64,000 bases of DNA from Dehalococcoidia bacterium (GCA_963665735.1 OY762444.1:2025828-2089827), one strand, 5' to 3'. Shown: positions 45,904 to 60,530, numbered from the stretch's first letter. Program-made: numbers and translations. Notes: a model not told the origin generated them from the sequence alone.

Positions 45904-47535
45904 TCAGTCCGCCAGTTCCGCAATCAATTTTTTCAGCCCCTCATCGGAGTCGCCGCCCGGCAGTACGATGCGGGCGCAGCGACGGCCGATTTCCCGCAAC
46001 GCCTGGAAGTCGCCCAGGGATTGAGCGTCGTTCAGGGTGGCGAAGGAAAAGGGGCAGCCGGGGATGTCAATTTCGTCCTGATGCTCGGCGACAAGCTGCA
46101 AGAACAGGCCGGAGTTGGGGCCGCCCTTGTGCAGTTGGCCGGTGGAATGAAGGTAGCGCGGGCCGTAGCCGACGGTGGCGGCGATGCAGTGTCGGGCCAT
46201 GACCCGCCGGCGCAAGTCGTCCAGGGCCGATTCCATTTCCGGGGTAGGAAGTCCATAGACCAGCACGGCCAGGTAGTCCCCGGCGTTGGCGTCGGCCAGC
46301 AATTCCTTGATAGAGCCGACGTTTTCCATTGCGGGCAGCTTGCCGCCGGCGCGGTAGTCATCCAACATCCGGTCGGTGCGGTCTTTGGCCGATTGCACGT
46401 CTGGCTGGTCGAAGGGGTGAATCCCCAAGGCTGCCCCGGCTGCGGCGGTGGCAAATTCCCACCGGAAAAACTCGGCGCCAAGGTCGTAACCGTCGGCCAA
46501 GTCCAACTGCATTACCGGCTGGCCGGCGGCGGTCAACCGGCGGCAAGTTTCGTCCCAAAGGTCGTTGTCGTCGCCGGCCAAGCGCAGATAGACGAAAAGA
46601 CGGTCATGGCCGTAGGCGTCGGGGGGCATGGCGGGTTCGCCGGCTACCGGGATAATGCCGGTGGATTCTTTGCCCAGACTTTCGGCCAGCATTTGCTCAA
46701 CCCACAACCCGAAGGCGGCGATGGCCGGGGATGCGGCGATGGTAAGTTTATCCCGGCCCTGGCGTTGGGCTTGGGCCATGACCAGGCCGAGTTGGAATCC
46801 GGGGTTTTCGGCGACAGGAACGTCCGGGCCGCAGGCTTGGCGCATGGCGTCGGCGCGGGCCAGCAGCCGGGACAGGTCAACGCCGGAAAGGGCCGCCGGA
46901 ACCAGGCCAAAGTAGGACAGCACGGAGTAGCGTCCGCCAATGTCCGGCGGGTTGAGGAAGGCGCGGCGGAATCCGGTTGCGGCGGCCAGCCGTTCCAGGG
47001 AAGTACCGGGGTCGGTGACGGCGGCGAAATTCCCGCCGGCCAAGTCCGGGCCGACGGCGGTTTCCACCAGGGCGCGGAAGTGGGCGTAAAGGGTGTTGGG
47101 TTCGATAGTGGAGCCGGACTTGGAGGATACCAGGAACAGGGTCTTGGCCGGGTCAATGCGGCGGGTGACGGCGGCTATCTGCGCCGGCAGGGTGGAATCA
47201 AGGACGATAAGCTGCGGGTACTCGCCGGAGTCGGGAGCGATGGTCTGGCGGAGGACTTCGGGGCCGAGACTGCTGCCGCCCATGCCCAGCAGGACGACGT
47301 GACGAATCCCGGCGTCGCGGACTTGGCCGGCGAACCGCTCCAGGTCGGGGACTTGCGCCCGCATGGACTCAATGCAGGTCAGCCAGCCCAGCCGGTCGGT
47401 GATTTCCGTTGGGTCGGGTTTCCAAAGGGTATGGTCACCCTGCCACAGACGGCGCGGGGCGTCCTGCCGGCCCATTTGGGCAGCCAAAGCGTCAATGTCG
47501 GGCAAGTTTGCGGTCAAGGAAGGCGTTACAACCAT
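45904..47535 (-). CDS. pgi: Glucose-6-phosphate isomerase (Tal-Pgi type)
   Basis: RLGWL, GMGGSSL, SSKSG.T.E, GGRYS, EQ..AES.GK, FDQPDV..AK, HSTGQLHKGG. Confidence 0.92.
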   Translation of the reverse strand: MVVTPSLTANLPDIDALAAQMGRQDAPRRLWQGDHTLWKPDPTEITDRLGWLTCIESMRAQVPDLERFAGQVRDAGIRHVVLLGMGGSSLGPEVLRQTIAPDSGEYPQLIVLDSTLPAQIAAVTRRIDPAKTLFLVSSKSGSTIEPNTLYAHFRALVETAVGPDLAGGNFAAVTDPGTSLERLAAATGFRRAFLNPPDIGGRYSVLSYFGLVPAALSGVDLSRLLARADAMRQACGPDVPVAENPGFQLGLVMAQAQRQGRDKLTIAASPAIAAFGLWVEQMLAESLGKESTGIIPVAGEPAMPPDAYGHDRLFVYLRLAGDDNDLWDETCRRLTAAGQPVMQLDLADGYDLGAEFFRWEFATAAAGAALGIHPFDQPDVQSAKDRTDRMLDDYRAGGKLPAMENVGSIKELLADANAGDYLAVLVYGLPTPEMESALDDLRRRVMARHCIAATVGYGPRYLHSTGQLHKGGPNSGLFLQLVAEHQDEIDIPGCPFSFATLNDAQSLGDFQALREIGRRCARIVLPGGDSDEGLKKLIAELAD

Positions 47536-47540
47536 GAGGA

Positions 47541-48674
47541 TTAGCGGGGCGCTTGTTGGGCCAGCAGCAGTTGGGAACGCTTTATTTCGATGTTGTCGAA
47601 AAGCAGGTCAAAGGAATCGGCGAAGGCTTTAACCCCGTCGGTCAGCAGTTGGTCGGTGATGGCCGTCATGCTGACGCCGGCCTGGGCCACCGATTCCAGG
47701 ACTGCGGCGGCCTGGGCAACGCCTTCGGTCACGGCCTGGCAAACATCGCCGTGGTCAATGAAGGCGTCCAGGGTGGCGTCGGGCATGGTGTTGACGGTAT
47801 CGGCGCCCATCAGGGTATCCACGTACAGGACATCGCTGTATTCCGGGTTCTTGGTGCCGGTGCTGGCCCACAGGGGCCGCTGCACCCGCGCGCCCTTGGC
47901 TTGCAGCCGTTGGAACCGCTCAGTGGCAAAGGTTTCCTGGAAGGCTTGGTAGGCCAGCTTGGCGTTGGCGACGGCGGCTTGGCCCATCAAGCGGCTGATT
48001 TCGCCGTTGCCGGCGCTGAGCCGGGCGGCCAGTTCGTTGTCAACGGCGGTGTCAACGCGGCTGACGAAGAAGGAGGCCACCGACGCGATTTTGGAGAGGT
48101 CGCCGCCCTTTTCGGACAAGTCCTCCAGCCCGGCGATGTATGCCTCGCGCACCTGGGCGTAGGCGTCCAGGGAGAAAATCAGGGTTACGTTGACGTTGAC
48201 GCCCTGGCCGATGAGCTGGCGGATGGCGGGTATTCCTTCCGGGGTGGCGGGAACCTTAATCAGCACGTTGGGCCGGTCGAGGGTGCGGAAGAAACGGGCA
48301 GCCTGCTCGACGGTGCCGGCGGTGTCGTGGGCCAGGTGGGGGTTGACTTCCAGGGAGGCGTAGCCGTCCACGCCGTTGCTGCGGTCATAGGCGGGGCGCA
48401 GCAGGTCGGCGGCGGCCTGAATGTCGCTGACCACCAGGTCCTCATAGATGTCGTTGGCGGATTTGCCGGCGTCGGCCAGTCGGAGGAGCGCGTCGTCGTA
48501 ATCGGCGCTGCCGGAAATGGCCTTCTCAAAGATGGTGGGGTTGGCGGTGAGGCCGCTGACGCCCTGGTCAATGAGGGACTGCAAGGCGCCGGAGGCAATC
48601 ATGCCCCGGCTGATGTTGTCGTACCAGATGGACTGGCCCAGGGCGTTGGCCCGGCGGATGTTTTCGGCTGACAT
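47541..48674 (-). CDS. tal: Transaldolase
   Basis: T.NPTIF, IKVPAT, NVTLIFS, SFFVSRVD, LWASTGTK, TVNTMP. Confidence 0.96.
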   Translation of the reverse strand: MSAENIRRANALGQSIWYDNISRGMIASGALQSLIDQGVSGLTANPTIFEKAISGSADYDDALLRLADAGKSANDIYEDLVVSDIQAAADLLRPAYDRSNGVDGYASLEVNPHLAHDTAGTVEQAARFFRTLDRPNVLIKVPATPEGIPAIRQLIGQGVNVNVTLIFSLDAYAQVREAYIAGLEDLSEKGGDLSKIASVASFFVSRVDTAVDNELAARLSAGNGEISRLMGQAAVANAKLAYQAFQETFATERFQRLQAKGARVQRPLWASTGTKNPEYSDVLYVDTLMGADTVNTMPDATLDAFIDHGDVCQAVTEGVAQAAAVLESVAQAGVSMTAITDQLLTDGVKAFADSFDLLFDNIEIKRSQLLLAQQAPR

Positions 48675-48709
48675 GATGCGGCTCCCGGGTATGGATTTTT
48701 TGGTTGGGG

Positions 48710-49185
48710 GATTTACCCCCTCCCTGGCCCTCCCCCTGGTAGGGGGAAGGGATTTTGCCCTCTACCGTCATACCGGCGCAAGCCGGTATCCAGGATTCCT
48801 TGCGACTGCCGAGGTTGTTGTGTGCTTGGGATTTCTGGATTCTGGCGAAAGCCGGAATGACGATACATCCTCAAGCATTCTTATTGTTGCGGGACTGGCC
48901 GGTTTGACGGGTTTCACCCCCATCCTAACCTTCCCCCGTCAAGGGGGAGGGGATTTTTGCCCTCTACCGTCATACCGGCGCAGGCCGGTATCCAGGATTC
49001 CTTGCGACTGCCGAGGTTGTTGTGTGCTCGGGATTTCTGGATTCCGGCTCCTTCGGCTATGCTCAGGACAGGTTTCGCTGGAATGACGATACATCCTCAA
49101 GTATTCTTATCGTTAAAGGACTGGCCGGTTTAACGGGTTTCACCCCCATCCTAACCTTCCCCCGTCAAGGGGGAAGGGATTTTTT
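48710..49185. repeat. ~200 bp tandem duplication of a REP doublet plus hairpin
   Basis: CCGTCATACCGGCGCA.GCCGGTATCC...GGAATGACGATACATCCTCAAG at ~48765 and ~48967. Confidence 0.85.
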
Positions 49186-49197
49186 CATTGGCTTGGG

Positions 49198-51204
49198 TTA
49201 CGCCAGCAGGGACAGGGCTTCTTGGACTACGCGCTGGGGGGTCAGGCGGAATTTTTCGTAGAGGACTTCGCCGGGGGCGGAGGCGCCGAAATGGGGGACG
49301 CCGACGGCCTTGCCTTCCAGTCCCACGTAACGCTCCCAGCCCAGGGGTGACGAGGCTTCGATGGATACCCGCGCTTTGATTTCCGGGGGCAGTACCCGAT
49401 GCCGGTACTCTTCGGGCTGAGAGTCGAACAGTCCCCAGGCGGGCAGGGAAACCACGCGGGCCGGGATTCCCTGGTCTTCCAGTTGCTGGCCGGCGTTCAG
49501 GGCGATGACGACTTCGGAGCCGCTGGCCAGCAGGATTACGGCGGGGTTGGGACCGGATTCCCACAGGACGTAGCCGCCCTTCTGGACGCCGGAGGCCGGG
49601 GCCAGGGCGGAACGGTCCAGCACGGGCAGGTTCTGGCGGCTGAGGGCCAGTGCGGTGGGGCCGTTCTTGCGGGACAAGGCTACTTTCCACGCCTCGACGG
49701 TTTCGGTGGCGTCGGCGGGGCGGATGACTTCCAGGTTGGGAATGGCGCGCAGTCCCAAAAGCTGCTCAATGGGCTGGTGGGTCGGGCCGTCCTGGCCCAA
49801 GCCGACGGAATCGTGGGTAAAGACATAGACCACGCGCTGGCCCATCAAAGCCCCCAGCCGGATGGCCGGGCGCATATAGTCGGAAAAGAGCAGGAAGGTG
49901 GCGGTGTAGGGAATGGCGCCGCCGTGGAGGGCGATGCCGTTGGCAACCGACCCCATTGCGTGTTCGCGGACGCCGAAATGGAAGTTGCGCCCGCCGTAGG
50001 CGCCGGGGCCGAAGTCTCCGGCGTCGCTCAGCAGGGTCTTGGTGGAGGGGGCCAAGTCTGCCGAGCCGCCCAACAGGGTTGGCACCTTGGCGGCAATAGC
50101 GTTCATCACGGCTCCCCCGGCGTCCCTGGTGGAAACGGACTGGCCGGCATCGGTGAAAAGCTGGCCCAGGCCCAAGTCCCAACCTTCGGGCAGTTCGCCG
50201 CGCAGTTCGGTTTGCAGCCGTTGGGCGTCGTCGGGGAAGGTTTTGGCGTAACGCTCCATCTGGTTTTCCCAGTCCACTTGCCAACGGCGGCCCCGTTCCA
50301 CGGCCTCGCGGAAATGGGCCACCGCCGCCTCCGGGGTGGCAAAGGGTTCGGGGTACAGCCAGCCCAGGTTCTGCTTGGTCAGTTGGGTTTCGTCGGGGCC
50401 GAGGGGTTCGCCGTGGACACCGCCGGTGCCGGCCTTGTTGGGGCTGCCGTGGCCGATGACGGTCTGGCAGATAATCAGGCTGGGGCGTTTGGTCTCTTTC
50501 TGGGCCTCGACGATGGCGGCGTCAATGTCGGACAGGCTGGTTCCCTGCACCGGGCCGATGACCTGCCAGCCGTAGGCTTCAAATCGCTGGCCCACGTTTT
50601 CCAGGAAGGCGATGTCGGTGTCGCCTTCGATGGATATGCCGTTGTCGTCGTAGAAGTAGATGAGCTTGCCCAGCCCCAGGGTGCCGGCCAGAGACGCGGC
50701 CTCGGCGGCCACGCCTTCCTGGAGGTCGCCGTCGGAAACGATAGCGTAGGTGCGGTGGTCAATGATTTCGTGGCTCTGGCGGTTGTAGCGTTGGGCCAGC
50801 CAACGCTCGGCGATGGCCATGCCGACGCCGTTGGCGAAACCCTGACCCAGCGGGCCGGTGGTCAACTCCACGCCGGAGGCCAGGTCGTACTCGGGATGGC
50901 CGGGGGTCTTGCTGCCCCACTGCCGGAAGTTTTTCAAGTCGTCCAGGGAGATTTCGTAGCCGGTCAGGTGGAGCAGGCTGTAAAGCAGGGCCGAGGCGTG
51001 GCCGTTGGACAGGATGAAACGGTCGCGGTTGGGCCAGGCCGGGTCGTTGGGGTTGTGTTTCAGGAACCTATCCCACAGGACGTAGGCCAGGGGGGCGTCG
51101 CCCATCGGCGCGCCGGGGTGGCCGGAGCGAGCCTGTTCCACGGCGTCCACCGCCAGAAACCGGATGGTGTTGATACAAAGCTCGTCCAGTTTAGCGTCTG
51201 ACAT
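49198..51204 (-). CDS. tkt: Transketolase
   Basis: SGHPG, GHPE, TGPLGQG, DGD.QEG, GVREH, THDS.G.G.DGPTHQP; start re-called at ATG 51204. Confidence 0.97.
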
Positions 51205-51526: not shown

Positions 51527-52225
51527 TTAGTCGCGTTCCATGCTGGCTACTACGGTTTTTACGCCGGTCTGGAGGGTCTCAAAGACTTCGCGGACGCTGC
51601 GGCGGGCGTCCACCATCTCGAAGTTGTGGCGGCGGGCCAGGTCGCGAAATTCGTGAATGAGGTCGCTCTGGTACTGGATAAAGGTGTCGTAAAGGTCTCG
51701 GCCCCGCAGGTAGTCCTCTCCCGATTCCCAATGGTCCAGCTCCCGGTTGGCCAGCACCCGGGGCAGCAGGTCTTGTACGTCAATGTCGAGGAAAAACACC
51801 TGGTCGGGAACCAGGGCGAACTCGAAAACGTCGTCCAGCCAGCGGGCCGGCACGCCCCGGGCCCGGGCCCGGGCGATGATGGAGAAGATGTAGCGGTCAA
51901 CCAGGGCCACCTTGCCGGCCTGGAGGGCCGGGATGATGCTCTTTTCCAGCCTGTCCCAAAAGTCGGTGGCGTAGAAGAGGTTGAGGGTGATGGCGTCCAG
52001 GGTATGCCCCCGCATGGCCCGGTCAATGCCGTCGGCGGCCAGGTCGGAGCGGCGGAATCCGGTGTCCAGCACGGCGTAACCCTCGGTTTCCAGCCATTCT
52101 TTGAGCATGGCGATTTGCACGGAGCGGCCCACGCCGTCGGTGCCTTCGACGACGATTAGCCGGCCGGGCATGGGTTCCCAACTGGCGCCGGGGGGAGTGT
52201 GGCCGTAAAAGGTGGGGACTTTCAT
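51527..52225 (-). CDS. Thymidylate-kinase-fold protein B (P-loop Lys replaced by Arg)
   Basis: [19 protein letters not shown]....DRY; AGGAG RBS. Confidence 0.85.
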
Positions 52226-52480
52226 TCCGGCTCTCCTGAAGGGGTTAGTAGTCTGTAACCATTGAATTGTTGGTTAATCCGGTTGCAAGCCGTCGGGCGG
52301 CCCGGCAAGGCAACTTGTCTCATTCCCTCCGCAGGGGTGCGGGCGGGTTTGAAACCCGCTCCTACGCCGGGAAACGGACCCCCACCCCAACCCTCCCCCT
52401 GGCCAGGGGGAGGGGGCTTTTGGATTGCGCCGGTATGACGGGTTTGTTGGGTTAGTCATAAATCAAACCGGAACAGCCAA

Positions 52481-53311
52481 CTAGCTGTCGGTTTCCAGCG
52501 GGTTGTCGGGGAGTTTCCGGGAACCGGGGGGGCGGATGTACCGCCCGGTAAGGCTGGCGCTGCTCAGGGCTTCGGTAAGGCTCTGGCCCTGAATGGTCAT
52601 GGTTCCGTCCAGCAGCGGCTCAACGTACTTCCGCACCATGCGCTGCTGGACGGCGATGGGCAAGGTGGCGTCAATGGTTATCAGCCCGTACTCTTCGGCC
52701 AGACTGTCGTACTCGTCCAGCAAGCGGCCCTGGAATACCCGGAAGGAATCGGCCCGGCTGGCGGCAAAGCCCATGTCCTGCCCCGACTCGTAGAAACCGA
52801 TTTCCTCCCGGCCCACGCTGATGCGGCGGATGGACTCTTCCAGCGGCACCTTGAAATAGAGGCCCAGGGAGGGCTGGACGGCGAAAGAGTAGATGCGGCG
52901 CAGCCAATCCCGGTCAACGCCGCGGGCGGCGTCGCGGGCAAAGGCGGTATAGACGTAGCGGTCGGCCAGCACGATGGTGCCGGCTTTCAGGGCGGGCATA
53001 ATCTGGGTATGGACGCGGCTGGCGAAGTCGGCGGCGTGAATCAGGCTGAAGGACATGGGGGTAAGCAGCCGGTTGTCCTTACCGCGCTTGGTGGTGCGCC
53101 GCACGATGGGGGAAGAGTTCCACTCGGTGAAAACCGTCACCAGGTTCAGGGTGCGGAGCCACTTTTCCAGCAGGTCAATCTGGGTGCTTTTGCCGGAGCC
53201 GTCAATGCCCTCGACGATGATTAGACGGCCGGGATACTCGCCGTCGTTGGGGTGTTCGCCAAAGCGCTCACCCATCGCGAAACTGGTTGGCTTGTTGCCG
53301 TTGTCGTTCAT
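52481..53311 (-). CDS. Thymidylate-kinase-fold protein A
   Basis: LIIVEGIDGSGKSTQ, TEWNSS, ADRY; start coupled to the ppx stop (TAATG). Confidence 0.88.
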   Translation of the reverse strand: MNDNGNKPTSFAMGERFGEHPNDGEYPGRLIIVEGIDGSGKSTQIDLLEKWLRTLNLVTVFTEWNSSPIVRRTTKRGKDNRLLTPMSFSLIHAADFASRVHTQIMPALKAGTIVLADRYVYTAFARDAARGVDRDWLRRIYSFAVQPSLGLYFKVPLEESIRRISVGREEIGFYESGQDMGFAASRADSFRVFQGRLLDEYDSLAEEYGLITIDATLPIAVQQRMVRKYVEPLLDGTMTIQGQSLTEALSSASLTGRYIRPPGSRKLPDNPLETDS

Positions 53312-54909
53312 TATTCGGCCCTCCCTATTTCCAGAGGTTCGTTGAACTCGCGCTCCCAGCGGTCGCGCACCTGGGGTTCGGCGGCCCGGGACCAGGCCGG
53401 GGTGGTGATGACCAGCCGCCCGTCGCGGCGGGCGATGGTGACGGATTCTTCCGGGCAGTTGGGGGGCAGCCGTCTTTCCAGTTCGTCGGCCAGCAGCAGG
53501 ACGGCGGCGGCCTGGCCCAAGCGTCGCTTGTCGCCGCCGGAAAGAACCTGGGACTGGCGGAATTGGCGGGGGAGGCGGCCCCGTTCCGCCACCAGCATGA
53601 CGCCGGCAATCTGGGCCGATTCCCGATGGGTGAATCCGGGCAAGTCGGAACGGACTACCACGGCGGCGGCGCGGTTGAGGCGGTTGTAGAAGTCCATTGC
53701 GCTGCCGATGTCCAGCAGCAGGGCGGCGCACTGGAGAGAGCCGGTCAAGCGGCGGTGACGGCCCCGCCAAGCCTGGGTTGCGATGCGGCGGGCAAAGGCG
53801 GCCCGGCGTCGGCCCCGCTGGGAAAACCGGGGGGCGAACCGGCTCAACAAGTCCATGAGTCCGGCGAACCGGACGCGGGAACGGCCCGGCAATGAATAGC
53901 GTCCGTTGGCCGGCAAGGGGTCGGATTGGCGGGCCAGCCCCTCGCGCAAGCCCTGGCCGGAAACCAGGATGCCGTTGGCGTCGGCGTGTTCCATGAGGGC
54001 CTGGGCGACGACGGCGCCGCCGACGACGGAATGGGCGCGGTCGGGGTTCATGCCGGACATTCCGAGGCGCTCGTCCCGGTCGGCTTGGGACAATTGGGCG
54101 GTCAGTTCCCCCAAGGGTTGGGCGTCAATGCGGTAGCCGTGCATCCGCAGGATGGGGTAGGGCCAGCGGCGGCGGTCGAGCTTGGACAGCAGACGAATGG
54201 AGCCTCCGGAGCCGATGAGGGTTCCCCGGGGCCGCAGCCGGGGGACTTCGGCATCGGCCAAAACGCTGCGGACGTGGCAGAAAGCGGCGGCCAGGTCTGC
54301 CGGGTCGGGGCGGTCGGTCAGCCGGAACATATTGGCGATGCGGAGGCTGCCCAGGGGGAGAGAGCAGACGTTTTCCAGAGAACGGTCGGCGAATTGCACC
54401 AGTTCGATGCTGCCGCCGCCGATGTCGGCCAGCAGGCCGTGGTCAACGGGGAGACCGTGGACGGCGCCGATGAAACAGTAAACGGCCTCTTCCTGGCCGC
54501 TGATGATGCGGAGGTTGACGCCATAGCGTTGGAAGGCGGCGGCGGTGATGGCGGAGACGTTGCCGGATTCGCGCAGGGCGGCGGTGCCAACGGCGTTGAT
54601 GGTCTCCACGCCGTAGCCGAGGCAGACCATTACGAAGTCCTCAATGGCGTCCAGGGTGTTGGCGACGCCGGCGGGGGAAAGATACCCGTCGGGGCCGACG
54701 TGACTCATCAAGTCCAGGTTCATGCTCTGCTGGGCGATGACTTCGATTCCGCCGCCGTCGTTGACGCGCATGACCACGGCGCGGGCCGAGCCGGAACCAA
54801 CGTCAATGACGGCGGTATAGCGTTCCCGGTCACGGTCGCCGTTCCAGGCGGGGGAGTAGGCGGGCCGGGCGGCCAGCAGGGCCGGGGCGTCGTCGTAACT
54901 GATGGTCAT
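53311..54909 (-). CDS. ppx: Ppx/GppA exopolyphosphatase family protein
   Basis: IDVGS, TAALRE, ISG.EEA, DIGGGS.E, SLPLG, GLREG; degenerate HD domain (LLLDIG). Confidence 0.88.
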   Translation of the reverse strand: MTISYDDAPALLAARPAYSPAWNGDRDRERYTAVIDVGSGSARAVVMRVNDGGGIEVIAQQSMNLDLMSHVGPDGYLSPAGVANTLDAIEDFVMVCLGYGVETINAVGTAALRESGNVSAITAAAFQRYGVNLRIISGQEEAVYCFIGAVHGLPVDHGLLADIGGGSIELVQFADRSLENVCSLPLGSLRIANMFRLTDRPDPADLAAAFCHVRSVLADAEVPRLRPRGTLIGSGGSIRLLSKLDRRRWPYPILRMHGYRIDAQPLGELTAQLSQADRDERLGMSGMNPDRAHSVVGGAVVAQALMEHADANGILVSGQGLREGLARQSDPLPANGRYSLPGRSRVRFAGLMDLLSRFAPRFSQRGRRRAAFARRIATQAWRGRHRRLTGSLQCAALLLDIGSAMDFYNRLNRAAAVVVRSDLPGFTHRESAQIAGVMLVAERGRLPRQFRQSQVLSGGDKRRLGQAAAVLLLADELERRLPPNCPEESVTIARRDGRLVITTPAWSRAAEPQVRDRWEREFNEPLEIGRAE

Positions 54910-55465: not shown

Positions 55466-55494
55466 TTGACACTTTTGGCATGGGACATTAGCAT
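55466..55494 (+). promoter_or_regulatory. Sigma70 promoter of the amino-acid ABC operon
   Basis: TTGACA-N17-TAGCAT. Confidence 0.65.
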
Positions 55495-55555
55495 AGAAGA
55501 TAGAGTGACGCTGTCACTATCCGAAGAAAATGGATTTGGAGGGACTGGTTTCGTT

Positions 55556-56725
55556 TTGAGCTTGCGAATTTTACTGGCAACGATACTCATTCTAGCCTTG
55601 GGTCTTATGGCCTGCTCCCAGGGGGACGACGCTGCTACGGAGGCCATGAGGTCGGAAAATGAGGCGATGAAGTCTCAGATAGCGTCCATGGAAGCCGAGA
55701 TGGAGGGCATGAAGTCCGACATGGCCAGCGGAATGGGCGCCGTGATGGAGGGCAACCGACTGGCAGCAGTCCGGGAGCGGGGCAAGGTTATCTGCGCCAG
55801 CCGGGACGACGTGCCGGGTTACGGCGCGTTGGACGCCGGCGGCAATAACGTCGGGTTTGACATTGACCTCTGCCGCGCCCTGGCCGCCGCAGTGCTGGGC
55901 GACCAGAACGCCATCGAAATCCGCCTGATTACCGCCGCCGAGCGGGGGCCGACCATCCAGTCGGGCGAGGTGGATATGCTGGTTCGCACCGTTACCTGGA
56001 CCACCTCGCGGGACGCCGGCTGGGGCAACTACGCCCAGACGATGTTCTACGACGGACAAGGGTTTATGGCGCGGAAGAGTCTGGGCGTCAACAGCGCGTT
56101 GGAGTTGACCGACGCCACCGTCTGCGTAACCCAAGGCACCACGACGGAGCTTAACCTGCAAGACTTTTCCAACCAGAACGGGCTGAACATCTCGCCGTTG
56201 ACCTTTGAGGACACCGACGCGGTGGTGGCGGCCTACGAAGGCGAGCAGTGCGACGCCTTTACCAACGACCGCTCCCAGTTGGCGGCCCTGGGTACGGCCC
56301 TTTCCAACCGGGCTGACCACGTGATTCTGCCGGAGACCATTTCCGAGGAACCCCTTGGCCCGGTGGTTCCCCACGGCGATGACCAGTGGTTCGACATCGT
56401 GAAGACGGTCATGGGCATCCTCATCTACGCGGAGGCTTACGGGGTAGGCCAGGGCAGCGTGCCGACCGCCGCTACCGGCGACAAGAAGGTTGACCGGCTC
56501 TTTGGCCTGGAAGGGGCCTTCGGACAGGAGGAACTGGGCCTCGGCAACACCGTTGCCCAGGACGTTGTCAAGGCCGTTGGCAACTACGGCGAGATTTACG
56601 ACCGCAACCTGGGACCCAGCGGCATTAACCTGCCGCGGGAAAACGGGCGCAACGCTCTGTGGGCCAACGCCCCTTGCTCCGACTGTCCCAAAGGCGGACA
56701 GATTTACTCGGCTCCGTTGCGGTAA
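55556..56725 (+). CDS. aapJ: General L-amino-acid ABC transporter substrate-binding lipoprotein (AapJ/BztA type)
   Basis: Lipobox LMAC; GFD.D.CRA.AAA, TWT.SRD, YDGQGF, GTTTE.N, S.EPLGP, VGNYGEIYDRN. Confidence 0.9.
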   Translation: MSLRILLATILILALGLMACSQGDDAATEAMRSENEAMKSQIASMEAEMEGMKSDMASGMGAVMEGNRLAAVRERGKVICASRDDVPGYGALDAGGNNVGFDIDLCRALAAAVLGDQNAIEIRLITAAERGPTIQSGEVDMLVRTVTWTTSRDAGWGNYAQTMFYDGQGFMARKSLGVNSALELTDATVCVTQGTTTELNLQDFSNQNGLNISPLTFEDTDAVVAAYEGEQCDAFTNDRSQLAALGTALSNRADHVILPETISEEPLGPVVPHGDDQWFDIVKTVMGILIYAEAYGVGQGSVPTAATGDKKVDRLFGLEGAFGQEELGLGNTVAQDVVKAVGNYGEIYDRNLGPSGINLPRENGRNALWANAPCSDCPKGGQIYSAPLR

Positions 56726-57077
56726 GTTACGGGCGCGCGGGATGCTGATGGGGACGGACGGGTTAACTGTCCGTCCCCATTTTGTTTGCGCCGCGTTGGG
56801 GGGCGACTTGGAAATGGCGGTTGGTTTTCCCGTTCGCCCTGAGCTTTCTCACCCAGGGCCGTCCGTTCATGGTTCGACAAGCTCACCACGAACGGACTCC
56901 CGGTTCACCCATCAGTCCAACGGTGGCGGACTACTGGAAAGGGCGCTCAAAAATCCCCTCCCCATCGCAAGGGGAGGATTAGGGCGGGTGTCAAACCCCG
57001 TTGCCGCACACCGTTTATAATGGGCTAGAGGTAAGAAATGCCGCCGGGGGTTGACGCCGGCGGCGGGGCTTTTTGAT

Positions 57078-58286
57078 ATGGCGGCTGTTCCACAACTGTT
57101 GACCTACCAGGGCATACCGTTTTGGCGGCACGTCCGGGTTATCCAGTGGGCCACGCAAGTAATTTCCGCCGTGGTGGTGGTGGCGCTGGTCGTCTGGTTT
57201 TTCACCAATATGGTCAACGCCATCCAGGACCGGGACATTCCCCACGGTTTCAGTTTCCTGTCCCGGGAATATCAGACGCCCATCGGGGAACACTTCCTGC
57301 CCTACGAGTCGTCGGACACATTCCTGTACGCCCTGGGCGTGGGCATCGTGAACACTGTGGTGGTTGCCGTTGCGGGGGTAATCCTGGCAACCCTGCTGGG
57401 CCTGTTCATCGGCGTGGCCCGGCTGTCCACCAACTGGATAGTGTCCAAGCTGGCGACGGTCTATATCGAGTTTTTCCGCAACGTGCCGCTGCTGGTGCAG
57501 TTGTTCTTCTGGTTCTACATCGTCCTGGCCCTGCCGACGATACGGGAAGGATACGTTATCGGCGGCCTGTTCTACGTCAACAACCGGGGAATCTCGCTGC
57601 CCTGGCCGCAGGCGTCCGATTACACGGTGGCCCTGGTCTGGCTGGGCGCGGCGATAGTCGCCCTGGGGGTGGGCCTGGCGGCTAACAAGCGGCTTTCCCG
57701 GAGGGAGGCACGGACGGGACTTCCTTCTTATCCCATTGTGGTTGGGGCCGGAGCCGCAATAATCATCGGCGGCGCCGCCTGGCTGGCTTTGAGCATTTTC
57801 ACCGGCGATTCGCCGTTCTTCATTTCGACGCCGGAGCCTCATGGCCGGTTCGGGAATATCGCGGGCGGTTTCACCGCCCGGTCGGGCTTGCTGGTGCTGC
57901 TGATTGGCCTGGTGATGTACACCGCCAGCTTTATCGCCGAAATCGTCCGGGCCGGAATCCAGTCGGTAGGACGGGGACAGACCGAGGCGGCGCGGGCCTT
58001 GGGACTGTCGCCAATGAAAACCCTGCGCAGCGTCACGTTCCCCCAGGCTTTGCGGGTCATCGTTCCGCCCCTGATAAGCCAATTCCTGAATCTGACCAAG
58101 AACAGCAGTTTGGGCGGCGCGGTGGCGTACAGCGACCTGACCAGCATAGCAGTGACCATGACCCAGACCGCGCCGGCGGTTTCCATATTCATGTTAATCA
58201 TGGCGGCGTACCTGGCCATGAGCTTAACCTGGTCGTTGATTGGCAACCTGTATAACCGCTACATCCAATACGGCAGAAGGAATTGA
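57078..58286 (+). CDS. aapQ: Amino-acid ABC permease (AapQ type)
   Basis: GF.FL, ARLS.NW, FRNVPLL, AEIVRAGI..V..GQ.EAA, LNLTKNSSL. Confidence 0.9.
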   Translation: MAAVPQLLTYQGIPFWRHVRVIQWATQVISAVVVVALVVWFFTNMVNAIQDRDIPHGFSFLSREYQTPIGEHFLPYESSDTFLYALGVGIVNTVVVAVAGVILATLLGLFIGVARLSTNWIVSKLATVYIEFFRNVPLLVQLFFWFYIVLALPTIREGYVIGGLFYVNNRGISLPWPQASDYTVALVWLGAAIVALGVGLAANKRLSRREARTGLPSYPIVVGAGAAIIIGGAAWLALSIFTGDSPFFISTPEPHGRFGNIAGGFTARSGLLVLLIGLVMYTASFIAEIVRAGIQSVGRGQTEAARALGLSPMKTLRSVTFPQALRVIVPPLISQFLNLTKNSSLGGAVAYSDLTSIAVTMTQTAPAVSIFMLIMAAYLAMSLTWSLIGNLYNRYIQYGRRN

Positions 58287-59533
58287 TGGCCGCGCCCGCT
58301 ACTCAGGCCCGGGAGACTCCGCTGCCGCCCCGTTCCGAGGTGGGTGTAATCGGCTGGCTGCACGCCAACCTTTTCAGCACCTGGTACAACACGGTTCTAA
58401 CGGTTATTTCCGTTACCCTCCTGGTACTGGCCCTGTGGTTCGGCTTGAAGTGGGTTTTCGCCGACGCCGATTGGACGGTAATCGTGGAACTGGGCGGGCG
58501 TTTCGTGTTGGGCCGGTACAACACCGAGGCCGCCTGCGCCGGGCAAAACTGTTTCTGGCGGCCCCAGGCTGCCCTGCTGCTGGTCGTCGTGGTGCTGGGC
58601 GCGGCCTGGGGGCTGCGGGGCAACCCGACGGCTCGGAACGTGGCCCTGCTGGTGGCCGGAGTTTCCGCAGCCTTCGCCTTTCTGCCGTACAGCCTGGAAA
58701 CGATGGGCTGGGACGTGCGGCTTTTGCTGCTGGCCAACCTGCCGGCCCTGGCCGTGGGTTGGGCCTTGGCCCGCTACACTCCCCTGGGCACCGGGATGCG
58801 GATAGCCTTAATGGGCGTGGGGGCGTTCTTCCTGACCTTGATTTTGATGCGCGGCGTGGCGGGTGTGCCGGGACTCCAGCCGGTTTCGGTGATTTACTGG
58901 GGCGGGCTGACGCTGAACCTGATTCTGGCCGTGGGCGGCATTACGCTGAGCCTGCCCATCGGAATCGCGCTGGCCCTGGGACGGCGCAGCAACCTGCCGG
59001 TGGTAAAAGTCCTGTGCGTGGCGTTTATCGAGTTGTTCCGTGGGGTGCCGCTGATTACCCTGCTGTTCATGTCCCAAGTGCTGGTGCCGCTGGCGTTCCC
59101 GGAGGATATGCCGCAAAACTCGCTGTTCCGCGCCGCCGTGGTCATTACCCTGTTCAGTTCGGCTTACATGGCGGAGAACATACGGGGGGGACTGCAAGCC
59201 CTGCATCTGGGGCAGGCCGAGGCGGCGCGGGCTTTGGGACTGGCCGGCTGGCAAACCACGCTGCTGATTACGCTGCCCCAAGCTGTCCGCAACGTGATTC
59301 CCGCCATCGTGGGACAGTTCATCAGCCTGTTCAAAGATACGACCCTGGTATATATCATAGGGATGCAGGATGTTTTGACCATCGGACGTTCTTTCATCCA
59401 GAGCAACCCGGAGTATCTGCCCAACGCTCCGGAATTGTTTGTATTCGTTGCGGTGGTTTTCTGGATTTTCACCTATACCATGTCCCACGTCAGCCGGCGG
59501 ATTGAGGACACGCTGGGCGTGGGGCAGCGCTAG
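58286..59533 (+). CDS. aapM: Amino-acid ABC permease (AapM type)
   Basis: W...NLFS, WGGL.L, LALGRRS, RGVPLIT, AE..RGGLQA, LFKDTTL. Confidence 0.9.
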   Translation: MAAPATQARETPLPPRSEVGVIGWLHANLFSTWYNTVLTVISVTLLVLALWFGLKWVFADADWTVIVELGGRFVLGRYNTEAACAGQNCFWRPQAALLLVVVVLGAAWGLRGNPTARNVALLVAGVSAAFAFLPYSLETMGWDVRLLLLANLPALAVGWALARYTPLGTGMRIALMGVGAFFLTLILMRGVAGVPGLQPVSVIYWGGLTLNLILAVGGITLSLPIGIALALGRRSNLPVVKVLCVAFIELFRGVPLITLLFMSQVLVPLAFPEDMPQNSLFRAAVVITLFSSAYMAENIRGGLQALHLGQAEAARALGLAGWQTTLLITLPQAVRNVIPAIVGQFISLFKDTTLVYIIGMQDVLTIGRSFIQSNPEYLPNAPELFVFVAVVFWIFTYTMSHVSRRIEDTLGVGQR

Positions 59534-59735
59534 CAAAGCAGCTTGTTGAACTGGCGTAGGGTTAAAGATTTGTCGTCATTCCGGCGAAAGCCGGAATCCA
59601 GAAAGTCCAGGCATGGAACGCCCTTGAGGGCAAGGATTCCTGGATACCGGCCTGCGCCGGTATGACGGGTTTTCCGGGCCGTCATCAATGCAGCGGTGGC
59701 GGCTTCTTAGCCGAAACCAATACGGGAGTTACAGC

Positions 59736-60530
59736 ATGGCTGATATTCAGGTGGATGGAAAGAGCGCGGAGGAGATTCTGGCTCTGCCCATGGAAGAGCG
59801 GGACGACATCATAATCTGCGAAAACATCTACAAGTGGTACGGCAATTTCTGCGCCATCCAGGACGTAAGCATGAAGGTCAAGCGGGGCGAGGTGGTGGTG
59901 GTTTTCGGGCCGTCCGGGTCGGGCAAGTCCACCTTTATCCGCATGATAAACCGGCTGGAGCAGCACCAATCGGGGCGCATCATCGTGGACGGCATCGAAA
60001 TGACCAACGACTTGCGGAACCTGGACGCCATTCGCCGGGAAGTGGGGATGGTCTTCCAGCAGTTCAACCTGTTTCCGCACATGACGGTGCTGGACAACAT
60101 TACGCTGGCGCCGCGGCGGGTGCGCCACACTCCCAGGGACGACGCCAACGCCACGGCGATGCAGCTGCTGGAACGGGTGGGAATCCCGGAGCAGGCGGCC
60201 AAGTACCCGGCGGAGCTTTCCGGCGGGCAGCAGCAGCGGGTGGCTATTGCCCGCGCGCTGGCGATGCAGCCCAACGTGATGCTGTTCGACGAGCCTACGT
60301 CGGCGCTGGACCCGGAGATGATTAAGGAAGTGCTGGACGTGATGCGGGAGTTGGCGGAGACGGGAATGACGATGATGTGCGTGACGCACGAAATGGGGTT
60401 TGCGCGGGAGGTGGCGGACCGGATGGCCTTCTTCGACGGCGGCGCGCTGGTGGAGGTGGGAACGCCGGAGCAGATTTTCAACGCGCCCCAGGAAGAGCGG
60501 ACGCAAGCGTTTTTGGACCAGATTTTGTAG
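59736..60530 (+). CDS. aapP: Amino-acid ABC ATPase (AapP/GlnQ type)
   Basis: [36 protein letters not shown]. Confidence 0.93.

Follow-up and report, generated by a model that had tools for sequence, protein, structure and literature searches.

We describe here a three-gene module from Dehalococcoidia bacterium (GCA_963665735.1 OY762444.1:2025828-2089827), found in a 64,000-nucleotide stretch of DNA (the window, from whose first letter positions are counted). The module, at positions 51,527 to 54,909, consists of a gene for a Ppx/GppA-family exopolyphosphatase (ppx) and two genes, A and B, whose products resemble thymidylate kinase (TMK). Very probably these genes constitute a polyphosphate (polyP) operon, in which A and B together form a polyphosphate kinase (PPK) of the PPK3 type, with A as the catalytic subunit and B as its activating paralogue. 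We base this assignment on homology and clade membership, on the states of motifs, on the gene inventory, on synteny, and on a model of the complex that supports binding. The locus is a new bacterial member of an already published family; what is new here is the wide spread of this family in Chloroflexota and a regulatory subunit with a lesion unlike the described one.

PPK3 was described by Höfmann et al. (J Biol Chem 2026, PMC12995831, and a preprint). Two S. acidocaldarius 'thymidylate kinases', exapted dTMP kinase (dTMPK) paralogues encoded adjoining ppx, were reported to form a heteromeric polyphosphate kinase. Saci_2019 (catalytic subunit, cPPK3) has PPK activity that is enhanced by Saci_2020 (regulatory subunit, rPPK3), Saci_2020 alone has no PPK or dTMPK activity, and dTMP kinase activity is confined to a third paralogue. 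The enzyme (SaPPK3) is an alpha2beta2 complex, modelled with the regulatory dimer as its core, and a reversible ATP:polyP phosphotransferase, which builds polyP at high ATP/ADP, returns ATP at low ATP/ADP and does not accept GTP as donor; compared with PPK2, its ADP and polyP sites have changed places. ST1543/STK_15430 of S. tokodaii was named as the cPPK3 homologue. PPK3 carriers were said to have several dTMPK paralogues, always to encode both subunits and mostly to be devoid of PPK1 and PPK2, and the genomic neighbourhood includes the polyP genes ppx, SixA, CHAD, NUDIX and Pst. In rPPK3s, the arginine of the DRX motif is lost or replaced. Occurrence in bacteria was given as 'a few taxonomically scattered bacteria', and part 229 of Data S1 flags 4 of 83 Chloroflexota rows as PPK3-positive.

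Sequence and structural evidence for a probable PPK3 pair

The first gene of the module is a member of the Ppx/GppA family. It matched Pfam Ppx-GppA (PF02541) with 169.9 bits (cut-off 27), and its closest solved structures were PPX/GppA enzymes; the match to domain III was weak (24.1 bits versus a cut-off of 27.3), and the score for NCBIfam TIGR03706 (227.7 bits) was under the cut-off of 307. On the minus strand, the ppx/A junction reads GAATAATGAAC, in which the ppx stop codon TAA and the A start codon ATG overlap by one base (TAATG). An earlier note on this DNA had proposed translational coupling at this site, and the minus-strand sequence bears it out.

Both A and B were most similar to ST1543 among solved structures. 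For A, this match (2plr/5h70) scored 177.5 bits (E 2.9e-51), and the runner-up, a canonical TMK, 54 bits; for B, the scores were 112.3 and 53 bits. Predicted structures gave the same picture. The model of A (pLDDT, the score of the predicted local distance difference test, 90.9) had ST1543 as its top fold match (template modelling score, TM, 0.88-0.92 by target), with a root-mean-square deviation (rmsd) of ~2 Å to ST1543 and 2.2-4.4 Å to canonical TMKs. The model of B (pLDDT 86.0) also had ST1543 as top match (TM 0.81-0.83, and 0.90-0.93 by target), with rmsd values of ~2 Å to ST1543 and about 3-4 Å to canonical TMKs. ST1543 (Sulfurisphaera tokodaii; PDB 2plr, 4nzy, 4rzx, 5h70) was deposited as a 'dTMP kinase' and is 41-44% identical to A and 30-32% identical to B; TEWNSS, DRYIYTAYARD-like and lid motifs are common to it and A. 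It differs from the present pair in that a lone catalytic-type subunit was solved, and no heteromer structure was among the matches found. With canonical dTMP kinase (Tmk), fold, P-loop, DRX motif and a match to Pfam Thymidylate_kin (PF02223; 74.6 bits for A, 79.0 for B) are in common, but both proteins are below the cut-off of the dTMP-kinase equivalog TIGR00041 (83.25 bits; A, just under it, 82.7; B, 72.2) and lack the REPG motif.

Subunit A contains the P-loop G35-IDGSGKST-43, a DRY motif and the lid segment F173-YESGQD-179. When A was aligned with the two canonical Tmk proteins of its own genome, E63-WNSS-67 occupied their REPG position, as the earlier note had read from the sequence of A. 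When A was taken together with its 119 listed close homologues, GKS and DRY were present in all 120 of these A-type proteins and EWNSS in 116, and K41, R118 and R163 (the P-loop Lys, DRX Arg and lid Arg) were invariant in alignment A1. A keeps the ATP-site motifs of a catalytic subunit, with the canonical REPG replaced by EWNSS. In addition, both A and B have two basic residues (R99 and R126 of A) that are conserved in PPK3-type rows; L and Q occupy these sites in the two canonical Tmk proteins of the genome.

Subunit B contains the P-loop G28-TDGVGRS-35, in which the Walker-A Lys position is Arg, the motif D110-R111-Y112, the lid segment H165-WESGED-171 and GFRRS at the REPG position. When B was taken together with its 120 listed close homologues, 120 of these 121 B-type proteins had GRS and all 121 had HWESG. 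The (F/H)(Y/W)ESG.D segment shared by A and B had been considered atypical of housekeeping Tmk, and indeed the genome's two canonical Tmk proteins do not have it. Coordinates are collected in Table 1 and motif states in Table 2.

Each subunit also has a conserved N-terminal extension before the first strand. In A, it covers residues 11-27 (A-type consensus MGxRxGxHPxDxxYPG), and was modelled with pLDDT >90 and without regular secondary structure; in B, it covers residues 5-20 (B-type consensus FYGHTPPG). Neither extension has a counterpart in the archaeal proteins.

Table 1. Positions of the module genes, their motifs and surrounding features (window positions, except for the tmk paralogues)
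Feature	Position	Strand	Basis or remark
ppx (Ppx/GppA-family exopolyphosphatase, 532 aa)	53311..54909	minus	Pfam PF02541; first gene of module
TMK-like A (predicted catalytic subunit, cPPK3 type, 276 aa)	52481..53311	minus	PF02223, ST1543 match
P-loop of A	53183..53209		
EWNSS of A	53111..53125		
DRY motif of A	52955..52963		
A-B spacer, 255 nt	52226..52480	.	sequence read; palindromic repeat and ribosome-binding site
Palindromic repeat	about 52377..52422		~45 nt, in A-B spacer
TMK-like B (predicted regulatory subunit, rPPK3 type, 232 aa)	51527..52225	minus	PF02223, clade membership
P-loop of B	52121..52144		
Transketolase, transaldolase and glucose-6-phosphate isomerase genes	45904..51201	minus	named from translations
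Hairpin resembling the repeat	55117..55140		
Amino-acid ABC transporter	55466..60530	plus	
Canonical tmk paralogue (L001)	G000:C1:2861735-2862340		
Canonical tmk paralogue (L002)	G000:C1:1240593-1241147		

Table 2. Motif states of PPK3-type proteins
Protein group	P-loop	REPG position	DRX motif
A-type	GxDGSGKS	EWNSS	DRY
B-type	GTDGVGR(S/T)	GFRRS	DRY
Archaeal second subunit (n=5)	GxEGxGRT, Arg in 4/5		DGY
C-terminal half of fused Alicyclobacillaceae protein P0243	degenerate		DRY

The genome to which the window belongs (G000; one contig, 3.92 Mb, 96.5% complete) was searched for other enzymes of polyP and nucleotide metabolism. Two canonical tmk genes are located at distant sites; their proteins scored 171 and 169 bits with PF02223 and contain both REPG and DRF. 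The genome thus has four TMK-family genes, the two canonical tmk genes, A and B. Neither PPK2 (PF03976) nor PPK1 domains (PF02503, PF13090) were matched anywhere in G000, and the only PF02541 match is the ppx of the module. Of the genes that the earlier note had suggested looking for, a separate tmk was found, and ppk1 and ppk2 were not. A and B are most likely the only recognizable polyphosphate kinase that this genome encodes, as judged from its gene content. The nearest named homologues were from metagenome-assembled genomes labelled 'Chloroflexota bacterium'.

Phylogenetic placement and complex prediction

Archaeal reference sequences were obtained by scanning genome contigs with a Sulfolobales-like representative (P0350), which yielded one 2.7-kb archaeal contig (L015) with the gene order sixA - ppx - cPPK3-like - second TMK-like, the last gene being cut by the contig end. 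Full-length homologues of this second TMK-like gene were retrieved, and L015 and these homologues stand in for Saci_2019/Saci_2020 as references. The Walker-A Arg of B is common to 4 of the 5 archaeal regulatory-type proteins; all five have DGY, whereas B has DRY.

Maximum-likelihood trees of 59 rows were built with LG+G4 and LG+C20. A branch with 100/100 support separated PPK3-type rows (both A- and B-types) from Tmk1 and Tmk2 of the genome. In the LG+C20 tree, A grouped with the N-terminal half of the fused Alicyclobacillaceae protein and five representatives (support 99/96), placing it with catalytic-type proteins, and B grouped with the C-terminal half of that protein and the second subunits of the archaea (96/91). 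The LG+G4 tree also recovered the latter group, together with two representatives (99/93). A constrained tree with Chloroflexota A and B as sisters was rejected (approximately unbiased test, p-AU 0.004), with the qualification that this constraint group was chosen after the tree had been seen. The archaeal rows have an unusual composition, and where the archaeal regulatory-type proteins join the fused C-terminal half, long branches meet. B is assigned to the regulatory type by its phylogeny and position, and not by a loss of the DRX arginine.

A 1:1 complex of A (residues 20-245) and B (residues 12-228) was predicted together with three controls. The A-B model scored 0.71 and the best of the three controls 0.00; contact agreement between runs was at least 94% and partner pLDDT at least 80. 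For comparison, 58 of 80 complexes of solved structure attain this mark, as do 2 of 110 mismatched pairs. The predicted interface involves residues 69-102 and 133-143 of A and residues 61-95 and 129-136 of B. The model supports binding of A to B at the level of a structure prediction.

Distribution in Chloroflexota

Conservation was examined in 41 genomes of the organism's order. An orthologue of A was detected in 11 of these: the genome itself, all 7 genomes of the same genus, 2 of 17 other genera of the family and 1 of 16 other families. A B-type gene followed A in all 11 carriers. The ppx-A-B order was kept at all 10 loci of relatives, whereas flanking genes differed in 9 of the 10, the closest relative alone sharing them, and a stop/start overlap of 1 or 4 nt between ppx and A was present at 9 of the 11 loci. 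The arrangement is not due to chance. PPK1 was absent from all 41 genomes and PPK2 was found in five, one of them a carrier, so that 10 of the 11 carriers had neither enzyme.

At the level of the phylum, 401 evenly sampled genomes, each at least 80% complete, were considered. An A-type gene was detected in 82 genomes, representing 33 of 216 genera. A B-type gene (E <= 1e-42) was present in 76 genomes, all of them A carriers, and was directly downstream on the same strand in all 76. Of the six A carriers that lacked a B-type match, one carries A at the edge of a contig and the other five are from one family. Loci of three of these five were examined (L025, L028 and L029, from genomes G275, G202 and G259), and in each a longer and more divergent second TMK-like gene (~435 aa) follows A. 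These three loci are a distinct operon variant: a gene for an MgtC/DUF4956 membrane protein lies 5′ of the pair, a CYTH protein is encoded 3′ in L025, and in two of them the second subunit carries a fused HD/Ppx-GppA domain III module.

Loci were also sampled from 14 distant carriers, one to three per family, in 11 families. A second TMK-like gene followed A in all 14. Neighbours or fused domains linked to polyP or phosphate (ppx, CHAD, PhoU, CYTH, HD/Ppx domain III) were found at 9 of the 14 loci; CHAD occurred at three, one of these as a Ppx-CHAD fusion 2.6 kb away, and PhoU with a histidine kinase and MgtC/DUF4956 were also seen. At the remaining 5 loci, neighbours had no evident link to polyP. 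As to the synteny that the earlier note had proposed to test, ppx is linked in the organism's own order and CHAD or PhoU are near some distant carriers; neither sixA nor CHAD is present at the locus itself.

Proposed mechanism and alternative explanations

We infer the PPK3 function of A and B from their homology and their context, and the reaction, the direction it takes in vivo and the inactivity of B are predictions of this kind. A would bind ATP or ADP through its intact P-loop, DRY motif and lid and would transfer terminal phosphate reversibly (ATP + polyP(n) <-> ADP + polyP(n+1)). B, a paralogue with a Walker-A Arg, would assemble with A through the helix surface used for dimerization in dTMP kinases and activate it. 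The same enzyme may make polyP at high ATP/ADP and regenerate ATP from polyP at low ATP/ADP, while the translationally coupled Ppx would hydrolyse polyP from the chain end. Because the genome has no PPK1 or PPK2, A and B are proposed to be its only polyP route.

Here as in SaPPK3, two adjacent dTMPK-superfamily paralogues directly follow ppx, catalytic and then regulatory; a canonical dTMPK is encoded elsewhere and PPK1 and PPK2 are absent from the genome; and here A falls in the catalytic-type and B in the regulatory-type clade, with a heteromer predicted. The present pair differs in being bacterial (Chloroflexota, to judge by how its nearest homologues are named) and not from a thermoacidophile, and its activity is predicted. 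B keeps the DRX arginine and carries a Walker-A Lys-to-Arg change alone, the operon lacks a sixA or CHAD gene, and A has a conserved ~27-aa N-terminal extension and a ~40-aa C-terminal tail. The earlier note had compared the pair with PPK2, noting the TMK-like fold of those enzymes. PPK2 is indeed also a P-loop kinase acting on polyP, and a parallel with two-domain class II PPK2, in which an active unit is joined by an inactive paralogous unit, was drawn in PMC12995831. However, A and B have no PF03976 match (Pfam scan, E <= 0.01) and Pfam lists PF02223 only for both, so that the family is PPK3 within the dTMPK superfamily and not PPK2.

Several observations weigh against the PPK3 assignment or narrow it. 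The predicted A-B interface looks like the helix surface at which dTMP kinases form homodimers in solved structures, and because of this resemblance the pass of the complex model may mirror likeness to those homodimers. The locus lacks SixA and CHAD genes, and a search of G000 for the CHAD domain gave no match. The archaeal regulatory-type proteins were identified solely by their position after the cPPK3-like gene of L015 and by the DGY motif, and the literature found on the PPK3 family consists of Sulfolobus work only. B keeps most of the conserved basic residues and also the DRX arginine, as part of a DRY motif present in 118 of the 121 B-type proteins; because the paper states that rPPK3s have this arginine replaced, the inactivity of B is tentative. 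Across the phylum, 59 of the 82 carriers also have PPK1 and/or PPK2 (25 PPK1, 50 PPK2, 16 both, 23 neither), and ppx is directly upstream of A in only 3 of the 14 distant carriers. Linkage to ppx and absence of PPK1 and PPK2 are lineage-specific and not general.

We also considered PPK3 as a replacement for PPK1 and PPK2. This idea holds in the organism's own order, where 10 of 11 carriers are without both, and is weak across the phylum; given the 59 carriers with PPK1 and/or PPK2, PPK3 is no clean replacement for them. PPK1 was detected in 25 of 82 carriers versus 176 of 319 non-carriers and PPK2 in 50 of 82 versus 145 of 319, counts that include related genomes, which are not independent. 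Among the 319 non-carriers, 190 have PPK1 and/or PPK2 and 129 lack both. Three genomes flagged as unpublished (G078, G376 and G304), all of them non-carriers, are counted in these tallies of PPK1 and PPK2, and no claim on PPK3 uses them.

The most serious alternative concerns B. Both subunits could be catalytic, with B providing a second active site, e.g., for AMP phosphorylation or for binding or priming of polyP, so that the heteromer performs two steps. The DRY motif of nearly all B-type proteins is consistent with this idea, as is the alignment of R92, R111, R119, R123 and R156 of B with basic residues that catalytic-type proteins conserve. In addition, the Walker-A Arg is near-invariant (120 of 121), pointing to selection for function and not to decay. 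In P-loop kinases, however, a Walker-A Lys-to-Arg change usually abolishes phosphoryl transfer, which counts against a catalytic B. Moreover, B has neither the lid arginine found at position 168 of A nor the Lys found at position 78, and its archaeal counterpart Saci_2020 was reported to have no PPK or dTMPK activity (PMC12995831). We consider this explanation quite unlikely. A related proposal for the phylum is that the Chloroflexota second subunit, with its DRX arginine, its near-invariant Walker-A Arg and nearly all of the basic residues that the catalytic type conserves, is a working site (polyP-binding/priming or AMP-phosphorylating) beside the ADP/ATP site, and that the heteromer is the sole polyP synthase in Chloroflexota carriers without PPK1 or PPK2; this also appears unlikely. 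In the phylum sample, about a fifth of the genomes carry PPK3 at all.

It is far less probable that A and B are ordinary nucleoside-monophosphate kinases, for dTMP or a related substrate, and that the adjacent ppx is incidental. Both proteins do match Pfam Thymidylate_kin (75-79 bits), the TIGR00041 score of A is just below the threshold (82.7 versus 83.25), and homologues are named 'dTMP kinase' in public sources. However, two canonical tmk genes are present elsewhere in the genome, A has EWNSS and B has GFRRS where canonical Tmk has REPG, both the gene pair and the polyP-linked genes around it are conserved, and the nearest characterized relatives were reported to be without dTMPK activity (PMC12995831). 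The claim of the earlier note that the pair is not a dTMP kinase is accordingly supported, the homologous Saci_2019/Saci_2020 pair being the polyphosphate kinase PPK3 (PMC12995831). That note had also left room for an alarmone-related kinase, a module in which Ppx/GppA would be a pppGpp phosphohydrolase and A and B would handle guanine nucleotides. The best solved relative of Ppx, 6pc0 (129 bits), is annotated as a guanosine pentaphosphate phosphohydrolase, two RelA/SpoT-domain proteins are encoded in the genome, and the Ppx of the module is the genome's single Ppx/GppA gene. On the other hand, the RelA/SpoT genes are roughly 490 and 690 kb from the module, GTP was no donor for SaPPK3 (PMC12995831), and the neighbours found across the phylum (CHAD, PhoU, CYTH, HD/Ppx_III) point to polyP and phosphate. 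An alarmone function therefore seems very improbable: the polyP half of the earlier proposal stands on the ST1543 match, clade, inventory and synteny, whereas the alarmone half found no specific support.

A role in defence was also examined. Both proteins gave weak matches (33-38 bits) to the TMK-like PADLOC candidate model PDC-M51B, which we read as generic fold similarity, and such a role was rejected.

Intergenic regions and neighbouring genes

The earlier note had placed B after A. Its motif and the gene order hold, but the two genes do not abut, being separated by a 255-nt spacer, compared with 43-199 nt in 10 relatives. The spacer contains a GGAGAG ribosome-binding site 5′ of B and a palindromic repeat with the core CCCCCTCCCCCTGGCCAGGGGGAGGG, which is dispersed through the genome. 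When the whole spacer was used as query against G000, at least 66 matches were obtained, ~60 of which were the repeat outside the spacer (40 of 599 first-look candidates scored). The repeat looks like a repetitive extragenic palindromic (REP)-type intergenic element, and its presence accounts for the unusual length of the spacer. Its stem is a 10-bp hairpin; the entire spacer was not unusually stable (folding z = -1.71). A similar hairpin also occurs on the other side of ppx (Table 1).

A promoter scan of the locus gave no promoter-like sites, none being above shuffled controls, and a terminator scan gave 5 terminator-like sites versus a shuffle mean of 4.1, i.e., not above controls. A search of sequencing runs found the locus DNA in 4 runs of one study, with no RNA run among those listed. 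The module is flanked by the transketolase, transaldolase and glucose-6-phosphate isomerase genes directly downstream of B and by an amino-acid ABC transporter beyond ppx (Table 1); the transporter is the sole conserved neighbour, and this in the closest relative only.

Domain fusions

Domain fusions were surveyed in the 150 best 50%-identity representatives of 271 clusters matching A at E <= 1e-30. Tandem TMK-TMK, TMK-TMK-HD/Ppx_III and NUDIX-TMK fusions were identified. A cPPK3-like domain, 44-50% identical to A, is contained, along with MFS and APH/DUF2252 domains, in proteins of 794-1,276 aa (P0299, P0307, P0314, P0315, P0319, P0346). Long multidomain proteins of about 1,000-1,300 aa combine MFS, a TMK-like domain and APH/DUF2252. 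P0315, encoded by an Ancoracysta twista transcript (a protist; EukProt), is shorter and has an SPX domain and no MFS. It may represent an SPX-linked PPK3-type enzyme of eukaryotes; the word SPX is absent from the main text of PMC12995831. In P0333, P0360 and P0362, the kinase domain is fused to an 'InPase' pyrophosphatase domain, and P0333 (2,575 aa) has an additional ART-PolyVal domain, an architecture of mobile-element polyvalent proteins.

Conclusions

The definition of PPK3, in 2024-2026, was drawn from a single archaeal enzyme, and the spread of the family in Chloroflexota as found here (82 of 401 genomes) is wider than reported. Surveys that count only ppk1 and ppk2 would score such carriers as unable to make polyP, and polyP capacity missed in this way matters for phosphorus-cycling and wastewater studies. 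In addition, the bacterial regulatory subunit, by retaining the DRX arginine, is unlike the described one and offers a natural test of what turns the second subunit off.

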